DNA of 64,000 nucleotides from Chiloscyllium plagiosum (lineage: Eukaryota): positions 7,693,651 to 7,757,650 of the forward strand of contig NC_057752.1 of assembly GCF_004010195.1 (NCBI RefSeq), read 5' to 3'. A program made the position numbers and the translations under genes. The notes beneath the pieces are model-generated. The model was not told where the DNA came from. It worked only from the letters and a program-made list of their open reading frames with translations, and did no database searches. Below, in pieces: positions 25,050 to 27,200 of this stretch; within the stretch, counting starts at the first letter, position 1; each line of letters begins with the position of its first letter.

Positions 25050-27200
25050 CGACAGACAAAACAGGCAGGAGTTACGTCGGGAAGAAGTGTGTATTCCCGG
25101 GGCTTGAGGTCGCAAGTTGTTTAATTCACCTTGTTGCTATGTTAGTTAGAATTGGCGCTGAAAATTGAATTTTCTGTGTAAATTGGCAATGCCTGCGAGT
25201 CTGAATGGAGATTGTGCTATTTCTAAATTGGGGGAACACAGGGAATTTGGGGAAAAAAAACTCAGCCACAAAATGAGAGATAACAAAGACCGCTTTGTTG
25301 CTAAGCTTTGTTCCAAATGTGTTTTTTGTTTGTCTCGTTACAATGCTTCTCGGAAACTTGGTCTCTAATGAATCCTTCCAGTTCTGCGTTTTCTCTCGAT
25401 CAGCAGCAGCTCTCTGTTCAAATCCGGGGAAAGTCGGGACGCAAGATTTCGCCAGAATGAATTCAGAGATCGCGCTGAAACCAGAAGTTGTACGTTTTGT
25501 AAGAAACCTAATAACAAAGAGGGGCATGAAGCCAATTATTTGTATGATTATTCTCTTGCCATGGGTTTCAGTCAGTGTGATGAAATTTGCACTGAACGAG
25601 ATTCTGCAGCTCCTACAGAATGTGTTCTGTGCTTAAAGTGTGATCTGCCCGCTAGACAGAATAAATGGTCCTTTAAAAATTACAAGTACGCTAAATATGA
25701 GTTATCGCAAGGTTTATTTAAATGCAAATTGCAAATGATTACATCACTTTGGAGTGCTGCAATATTGTCACCAACTTTAATGCTGCAACGGTTGCCCCAC
25801 TGCTTGGTTCGTTTTAATATCTTGAAGACCTTTACATTGACTTAAAACGCAGACCTGCCCGCACTTGTGCAAAGCAATCCCAGCCGAGGGCGGTTGGCGT
25901 CAGGAAGATGTGATTTCACACGATCTGAAGGCAGGGGTCGCTCAGATTGTCCACAAAATCCCGGTTTCCCTCGTCAGAGCTTCTCCAGCAGCCTCTCGGA
26001 GCAGACACTTCGCTCTGCTTTCCTCACTAGCTGGACACTGGAGCTGGCAACAGAGAACGATCCGAGAGCAAAACTTTCTCTAGCAACCCTGTTCTCTTTT
26101 GGAGAAACTCTCTCTCGATAGATAAGATTTTTTTTTTCCCCCCCTGGTGCGGGTGGTCTCTGGTAAATCGTTCACCATTACTTCCAAAAGTGAAGACGAT
26201 TTTTTGACGCTGGCTGCGTCCAGGATCAGCCGGAGGAAGCGAGTGATTGGAGCGGCCATTGGGGTGGCAATGGTCTTGGTTCTGCTCATCGCCATCCCTT
26301 TGCTGGTCCAAAGCTCCAAGGCCTCTGCCCACTACGAGATGCTGGGCAGCTGCAGGATGGTCTGTGACCCTTACAGCCCAAAACCTAGCTCCACGGCGGC
26401 AGAAGCCATCCAGGACCTCGCTGTGATGTCCCCGCCACCCTTCATCCATGGGGGCAAAGGCGACCAGGGTCGCCGAGGCAAGCCCGGACCCAGGGGCCCC
26501 CCGGGAGAACCTGGACCCCCAGGGCCGAGAGGTCCACCCGGCGAATGGGGGGATCTGGGGAAACCGGGTCCTCCTGGGCCACCGGGCTCGGGGCCAGGAA
26601 CATTCAGCACTGCCTTCCACAGCCCCAAGATCGCCTTCTACGCCGGCCTTAAGAAACCGCACGAGGGCTACGAGATTCTTAAGTTTGACGACGTTGTGAC
26701 TAACGTTGGGAACCACTACGAAGCTTCCACGGGCAAGTTCACCTGCACCGTGCCCGGGATCTACTTCTTCACTTACCATGTACTGATGAGAGGAGGGGAC
26801 GGCACCAGTATGTGGGCTGACCTGTGCAAGAATGGCCAGGTAAGTGCTCATGCCCCCAACAGTCATTTACTCGGAGAGGAAAAGTTCCGCCGATAGATGC
26901 AGGAAACTTCAGCAGAGCCGCTCACCATTGAACGTTCGATTGGGAGGAGGTTGAGTTTATTGTTGGACAAAGTGGGCTGATTTTTGGGGAGAGGGCCAGT
27001 TGTTTTTGGTGGAGGGAGGGTCGATGGCGCTGGATCTACATCATTTTGTCTGTCTTCCTTCCCGATTCTTCACCTTATTACATTTCCTTCCATGGGATAG
27101 AATGATGTTCAAACGAACGTGCAACGTCGCCCAAAAACAAGGGCCCGGTTCCAAAGTGAGTGCAAAGGAATAAAAGGCTGTGCGGTTAAAAAGGCCGTGG
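25050..27200. promoter_or_regulatory. CpG-rich promoter/first-exon region of the C1QL gene
   Basis: CpG dinucleotides are visibly retained compared with the CpG-depleted flanks; no recognisable TE inside; boundaries approximate. Confidence 0.6.
26270..26839 (+). CDS. C1QL4: C1q-like protein, coding exon 1 (signal peptide, Cys-containing N-terminal segment, collagen repeat, most of the gC1q domain); partial gene
   Basis: Translation [35 protein letters not shown], 15-16 Gly-X-Y triplets, then [32 protein letters not shown]...[18 protein letters not shown]. Ends at donor CAG|GTAAGT, phase 0, at the family's KNGQ|VR exon boundary. Family call is firm. Paralog call (C1QL4 vs C1QL2) rests on recalled features (signal peptide, GRRGK, NVGNxYEA) and is about 0.65. 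Confidence 0.95.

Follow-up and report, generated by a model that had tools for sequence, protein, structure and literature searches.

The 64,000-nucleotide stretch of Chiloscyllium plagiosum DNA analyzed here (the window) carries the first coding exon of a C1QL-type gene on its forward strand, together with an upstream leader that is open in frame (Table 1); exon 2 begins at G000:C43:7762783, about 5 kb beyond the window end. The encoded protein has the parts by which the C1QL family is recognized: a signal peptide (judged by eye and by hydropathy), a two-cysteine segment, a short collagen repeat, and a C-terminal C1q domain. The two cysteines are invariant in an alignment of 33 sequences. 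Pfam matches above cut-off are PF01391 at residues 92–137 and PF00386 at residues 153–221, numbered on the long form discussed below; exon 1 reaches the first 70 positions of the C1q domain, and exon 2 completes it.

Table 1. Features of the leader and first coding exon of the shark C1QL4 gene (window positions)
Feature	Positions	Strand	Basis
5' leader without any AUG, no intron seen; at least 179–182 nt before the ATT	25995..26176	+	Contigs of two relatives
In-frame TAA, closes the frame upstream	26123..26125	+	Sequence
AUU, the likely start codon, in ACC-ATT-A (A at both -3 and +4)	26177..26179	+	Sequence, conservation
31-codon N-terminal extension (93 nt)	26177..26269	+	Sequence, conservation
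In-frame CTG (A at -3, G at +4) that may be a second non-AUG start, giving 20 extra residues	26210..26212	+	Sequence; L033, L034
Basic cluster RRKR, predicted cytosolic flank	26231..26242	+	Charge count
22-residue apolar run, predicted signal anchor: 9 extension residues and 13-residue signal-peptide core	26243..26308	+	Hydropathy
Canonical AUG (G at both -3 and +4), followed by a 20-residue signal peptide, predicted to be cleavable, with A-S-A at its end	26270..26329	+	Sequence; start of database orthologues (P0026)
Remainder of coding exon 1: two-cysteine segment, collagen repeat, first half of C1q domain	26330..26839	+	Pfam, identity to P0026
GT donor of 42,293-nt intron	26840..26841	+	Exon 2 mapped

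Phylogeny and exon 2 residues identify the gene as the C1QL4 orthologue of the shark. The tree was built on 40 exon-1 rows; C1QL1 was left out of it, as were 3 of the 40 chosen database proteins (P0169, P0080, P0172). In it the window protein shares a clade, with support 100/99, with 3 rows from cartilaginous fish and 10 from bony vertebrates, of which 9 are named C1QL4 and 1 is unnamed. This C1QL4 clade (14 of the 40 rows), in which the partners of the window protein include sturgeon, bichir, pike, turtles, alligator, a lizard, and birds, is set apart from a C1QL2 clade containing a second shark locus (L002) and a C1QL3 clade containing a third (L003). Residues of exon 2 agree with human C1QL4 and are absent from human C1QL1 and C1QL3. 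The nearest database proteins are from cartilaginous fish and are labelled “C1q-like protein 2”; the one designated P0026 is 98% identical to the window gene over exon 1 and 100% over exon 2. Three such proteins (P0026, P0030, P0036) are cartilaginous-fish C1QL4 orthologues named “complement C1q-like protein 2” and annotated as starting at the AUG; in two species the tree places the true C1QL2 in a second protein of the same name (pairs P0026/P0099 and P0036/P0113).

No other protein-coding gene was recognized among the long open frames of the window. Antisense to exon 1 is a 279-codon Met-started open frame (26866–26030, minus strand), likely a by-product of the GC-rich codon pattern, and upstream of the leader a 157-codon stop-to-stop frame (25372–25842, plus strand) lies in a CpG-rich region, outside the two transcript contigs described below. 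Broken LTR-retrotransposon-like gag, reverse transcriptase, and integrase frames were seen by eye at 2264–6190 (-), 14605–15276 (-), and 34963–35950 (+), as were lookalikes of the 3' part of a CR1/L2-type LINE reverse transcriptase at 10412–10825 (+), 11589–12589 (-), 47165–47527 (+), and 51673–52179 (+). The window contains 629 N, most of them near 41630–42130.

Two contigs from relatives of this shark cover the leader. Contig X1, from a close relative (1,373 nt, six substitutions in 841 nt), spans 25998–26842, and the 30 letters of its loose end are those of exon 2, letter for letter, so it represents a spliced transcript; X2, from a second relative, spans 25995–26417. Both run through the extension with zero differences from the window and no joint at the ATT, and an intron in the leader was rejected, as both contigs are unbroken there. 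Because the spliced X1 begins 179 nt ahead of it, the ATT should be on the mRNA. The initial annotation had made its case depend on transcription starting upstream of 26177, and X1 fits this by covering the leader from 25998, in a relative rather than in the window's own species. The 5' ends of X1 and X2 are 3 nt apart, within a region of raised CpG, and place the cap at or upstream of about 25995 without fixing the true start site. Each contig also lacks 4 nt in a T/C run (26137–26144), so that the frame above this run is not kept, and X1 has TAG in place of the TAA.

The upstream boundary of the extension is clear: an in-frame stop codon means that it could not be made from any upstream AUG. 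Besides the canonical start, the only ATGs within 25700–26270 are at 25722, 25735, 25780, and 25908, all out of frame and stopped at or before 25911; from 25911 to 26270 there is no ATG in any frame. Other in-frame near-cognate codons are present upstream of 26270, the best placed being the CTG at 26210. CTG or GTG codons also occur at 26144, 26147, and 26153; with C at -3 and unconserved surroundings, they were discarded as starts. The coordinates proposed initially for the TAA, the ATT with its A at -3, and the ATG, as well as the 31 codons in frame between the last two and their translation, all hold. How readily could such an arrangement arise by chance? Shuffling the bases of the 272-nt leader 20,000 times gave an open frame of at least 31 codons in 23% of trials. 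Some near-cognate codon preceded by a purine at -3 turned up 20 or more codons upstream in 22%; for an in-frame ATT with A at -3 at such a distance the figure was 2.9%. Judged from a single sequence, the pattern is weak; conservation raises it above chance.

The codon-level comparison set the window against two fish contigs from a metagenome collection (L033 and L034, two of four loci found, the other two lacking a 5' end), the shark's own two paralogues, and human mRNAs from a published supplement. In both fish loci the extension again has 31 codons, starting from ACT-ATT, and each of them shares with the window 24 of the 30 residues that follow the ATT. Against L033 the differences comprise 16.5 synonymous and 6.5 non-synonymous (dN 0.107, dS 1.65); against L034, dN is 0.107 and dS 2.1, giving dN/dS of about 0.05–0.065 with dS near saturation. 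Uncorrected, pN is 0.10 and pS 0.67–0.71, the former similar to that of the C1q-domain part (0.094). By codon position the differences number 7/0/16 (L033) and 7/0/17 (L034), with no second-position changes among 23 (p = 9e-5); for the window against L033, a Fisher test gives p = 6e-8 over the extension and p = 0.43 over the stretch upstream. Taken in register, the 90 nt upstream of the ATT show random-level identity to the fish loci (25/90 and 29/90). Between L033 and L034 all four differences in the extension are synonymous.

A wider and less even sample comes from database proteins, 32 of 186 fetched having been kept for a C1QL4-type signal with at least 31 residues ahead of it; being gene models or ORF calls, mostly from ray-finned fish, and retrieved with an extension-bearing query, they form a biased, non-independent set. 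On average they match the window at 79% of the 31 extension positions and at 13% of the 17 positions preceding. Ile stands at the ATT position in 31 of them (the exception, P0009, has Ala), and the Lys, Glu, Asp, Phe, and Leu that follow are conserved in 96–100%.

At the DNA level the ATT with A at -3 is found in all five sequences available (the window, L002, L003, L033, L034), as ACC-ATT in the three shark genes and ACT-ATT in the two fish loci. An in-frame stop lies 17, 3, 12, 68, and 30 codons above it, respectively; the extension interior is free of ATG in all five, and within 200 nt upstream an ATG occurs only in L002, above its stop. The human C1QL4 extension (Ivanov, 2011, PMC3105428, Supplementary Dataset 1 entry 20) aligns with that of the window by eye without gaps, with 23 of 31 residues identical; its mRNA reads GCC-ATT-G, and the human C1QL1, 2, and 4 mRNAs in that supplement all have a purine at -3. 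Of what Ivanov (2011) looked for in such extensions, the following are found here: bracketing by an upstream in-frame stop with no in-frame AUG above the extension, coding-type evolution, a near-cognate codon kept with its context, and, judging from the relative's transcript, location of that codon within the mRNA. The leader alignment, dN/dS, and ATT conservation that were initially proposed as checks thus come out in favor of a coding extension. By their pattern of substitution, the 31 codons from the ATT at 26177 to the ATG at 26270 evolve as protein, and we regard their translation as very probable.

The other shark C1QL genes share this organization. L002 and L003 have CACC-ATT in frame 29 and 30 codons ahead of their own ATGs, so that across the paralogues the extension varies in whole codons (29, 30, 31), and both retain the basic cluster and the 22-residue apolar run. 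The leader of the C1QL2-like L002 (L002:1309-1329, on G000:C7) has three ATGs 172–192 nt above the ATT, unlike the window and L003. A fourth, C1QL1-like paralogue is represented by exon 2 only, on a small contig (G000:C94601:7410-7595; L037); its exon 1 was not found, and a 3.8-kb run of N lies upstream.

What the extension would add to the protein was judged from simple hydropathy and charge counts rather than a trained predictor, with the signal-peptide cleavage site placed by eye using the -3/-1 rule. The RRKR cluster does directly precede an uncharged run of 22 residues, as first described, although the feature does not end at 26300 as had been given: the apolar run reaches 26308. The 15 residues ahead of the run carry a net charge of +4 and the 15 behind it one of 0 (difference -4), and the best 19-residue Kyte-Doolittle mean is 2.97 for the long form and 1.83 for the short form. 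This is the pattern of a type II signal anchor, in which a single hydrophobic stretch of about 20 residues or longer lies close to the N-terminus and is flanked by positive charge on its N side, and it fits the N-in topology that had been predicted from the positive-inside rule. Each of the five DNA sequences has an apolar run of 22 residues, and in all 32 database proteins the last K/R stands at a distance of 9 from the Met. AlphaFold2 models one helix over residues 4–48, with pLDDT 80–86 at residues 21–40, in a model that is poor as a whole (mean 50, half a domain).

Assuming the AUU is used, the preferred model is that leaky scanning on the shark C1QL4 mRNA would yield two proteins. Initiation at the AUU at 26177, by a minority of ribosomes, would produce a long form predicted to remain in the membrane; all others would begin at the AUG at 26270, and the short form that they produce, with a 13-residue core and the A-S-A site, would be secreted. 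We infer that most ribosomes scan past the AUU, because its context is moderate, that of the AUG is strong, and there is no AUG between them. In the long form the extension would set RRKR before nine extra apolar residues, so that the 13-residue hydrophobic core grows to 22. Targeting by SRP would be kept, the basic cluster would remain in the cytosol, and a core of 22 residues would be a poor fit for signal peptidase. The outcome would be a type II membrane protein whose collagen and C1q domains lie outside and whose cytosolic tail has 22 residues. The evidence makes this combination of an AUU start and a membrane-anchored long form probable; inference covers AUU initiation and anchoring in the shark, how much of each form is made, and C1QL4 anchoring in any species.

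Published work on the family agrees with much of this model, and with the statement in the initial annotation that conserved non-AUG extensions have been reported for mammalian C1QL genes. AUU extensions were predicted for C1QL1–4 across vertebrates by Ivanov (2011), who counted these among ten genes in which both the extension and the non-AUG start are apparently conserved in all vertebrates with sequence. Rodriguez (2024; PMC11317171) assigned the ATT start to human C1QL4, with an upstream region of 93 nt (Table S2), detected an extension-derived peptide, and followed the ATT back to lamprey by alignment, so that the conservation to cartilaginous fish first suggested is correct for the shark extension, which is under constraint, but understates the depth. 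A CTG further downstream in the C1QL4 leader, incompletely conserved among mammals, is also described by Rodriguez (2024) and may be the same as the shark CTG at 26210. Tress (2024; PMC11623489) notes conserved basic and Val/Ala-rich segments, expects both secreted and non-secreted populations, and gives C1QL4 as testis-expressed. The idea that leaky scanning could give a tethered and a secreted form has been demonstrated for C1QL2 in mammalian cells (Lee, 2024; 10.1101/2024.02.16.580719): C1QL1, 2, and 3 were expressed and gave two bands each, and C1QL2, the only one fractionated, lost its long band when the AUU was changed; the long form was retained in the membrane, and its N-terminus delivered GFP to the surface. 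For C1QL4, anchoring is a Phobius prediction rather than a measurement in the accessible parts of this literature.

Non-AUG initiation can be assisted by a stable hairpin just downstream of the codon, as for the neuronal pentraxin receptor NPTXR, and Lee (2024) predicted a downstream hairpin for C1QL1–4. In the shark, the RNA from +13 to +102 after the AUU folds at -31.5 kcal/mol (z -1.77; -1.29 and -0.67 for the other two folding windows); over five sequences a z of -2 was reached in only 2 of 15 folds, and z was positive in L003. A downstream hairpin in this gene is not clearly above shuffles.

Alternative fates or origins for the extension differ in how well they account for these observations. 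One is that the AUU form enters the ER but is cut by signal peptidase after A-S-A, giving the same secreted protein, perhaps more slowly or only in part. The cleavage site is intact in the long form, seven residues past the apolar run, and the nine added residues are rich in Gly and Ala, with a mean hydropathy of 2.44. A 2026 preprint (10.64898/2026.09.20.752496) reports that human signal peptidase cuts some yeast signal anchors, and puts 50% cleavage at a poly-Leu core of 18–19 residues; by analogy, a 22-residue run, being above that threshold, supports retention without proving it, and the threshold may not carry over because of the Gly/Ala-rich residues and the retained A-S-A site. Against cleavage, long C1QL2 remained in the membrane in neurons (Lee, 2024), and the tryptic peptide detected from inside the human C1QL4 extension (Rodriguez, 2024) implies that an uncut or stable extension exists. 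The fixed nine-residue spacing in all 32 proteins is also what would be expected if anchor length matters. On balance, this alternative seems unlikely, although partial cleavage may occur; it fares best among the alternatives.

A second alternative, which we consider rather less likely again, is that the main upstream start is the CUG at 26210, in which case the extension would have 20 residues and still include the basic cluster and anchor. This codon has a full Kozak context, ACG-CTG-G, shared by L033 and L034, and CUG is the most efficient near-cognate start (Ivanov, 2011). The ACG-CTG is missing from both L002 and L003, however, and conservation begins at the Ile, 11 codons earlier; the human C1QL4 peptide likewise begins upstream of the CUG position (Rodriguez, 2024), and in C1QL2 it was changing the AUU that abolished the long form (Lee, 2024).

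It is improbable, to a still greater degree, that the long form misses the ER, its signal being too far from the N-terminus, and either works or is degraded in the cytosol. Its hydrophobic run starts at residue 23, an ordinary position for the run of a type II anchor. Tress (2024) argues that extensions placed before signal peptides block recognition and that the products are mostly degraded, but treats C1QL as a conserved exception, and the N-terminus of long C1QL2 took GFP to the cell surface (Lee, 2024). Finally, that the extension is untranslated, whether as a chance open frame (the length alone being common among the shuffles) or as a conserved RNA or DNA element of the leader, is close to refuted by the concentration of differences on third codon positions with none on second, by lengths that are whole codons across the paralogues, and by the human peptide (Rodriguez, 2024).

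The ray-finned fish sequences have peculiarities of their own. In 27 of the 32 proteins, ray-finned fish c1ql4 (P0005-P0056), Leu-Ala-Gly-Thr, or a version one codon longer, directly precedes the AUU Ile, and in L033 (L033:293-304) and L034 (L034:430-441) the same Leu is encoded by CTG with A at -3 and G at +4. This CTG, 4–5 codons upstream of the AUU and lacking in the shark, may be a second, fish-specific CUG start. Between L033 and L034, 8 of 13 differences in the 90 nt upstream of the ATT fall on third positions (p = 0.035). Ray-finned fish C1QL4 (P0003-P0056, L033, L034) also differs in that a Gly-rich insert separates the hydrophobic core from the mature N-terminus, and the A-X-A site present in shark, pigeon, and other birds is mostly absent; cleavage of the short form may differ in these fish.

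Another possibility, more speculative than the two-form model itself and put forward as doubtful, is that the AUU form is an ancestral, built-in tether for C1QL. A few anchored chains might co-assemble with secreted chains through their shared collagen, cysteine, and C1q segments, holding the complex on the producing cell without a neurexin-type partner. If so, how strictly start codons are selected would set how far the ligand travels, selection on anchor length would have left its trace in the fixed nine-residue spacing of C1QL4 and in the 22-residue run common to three shark paralogues, and ray-finned fish, by adding a second CUG start 4–5 codons upstream, would have raised the anchored share.

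The general interest of the AUU-initiated, anchored form is that a single mRNA could supply both a diffusible and a tethered ligand, a mechanism already published for the C1QL family and conserved to lamprey. The shark C1QL4 extension is thus an instance of a known feature, predicted in 2011 and shown in 2024 for the family, and what the window adds is small: a cartilaginous-fish C1QL4 data point with a relative's spliced transcript and codon-level constraint, the 22-residue run shared by three shark paralogues, and the observation that the shark database proteins examined start at the AUG, three cartilaginous-fish C1QL4 orthologues carrying the C1QL2 name. A search of the literature on C1QL found no paper on the shark C1QL4 extension; figures and some supplements that were beyond reach may show shark sequences.

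Among known systems, the closest is human C1QL4 (Ivanov, 2011; Rodriguez, 2024): an orthologous gene with the same codon, 31 codons or 93 nt, a basic cluster, and a nine-residue apolar addition. It differs in its GCC-ATT-G context and in having peptide evidence, whereas the shark gene has ACC-ATT-A, weaker at +4, and a 42 kb intron. Long C1QL2 (Lee, 2024) resembles the model proposed for the shark in its leaky scanning at a conserved AUU and in its membrane-bound long and secreted short forms; it is, however, a paralogue, followed in HEK293T cells and cortical neurons, and has a stable predicted hairpin, whose counterpart in shark C1QL4 is not clearly above shuffles. The neuronal pentraxin receptor NPTXR (Lee, 2024) is alike in that start-codon choice on one mRNA gives a signal-anchored and a secreted form, but it belongs to an unrelated family, uses a CUG start, and has the anchored form as its canonical one.
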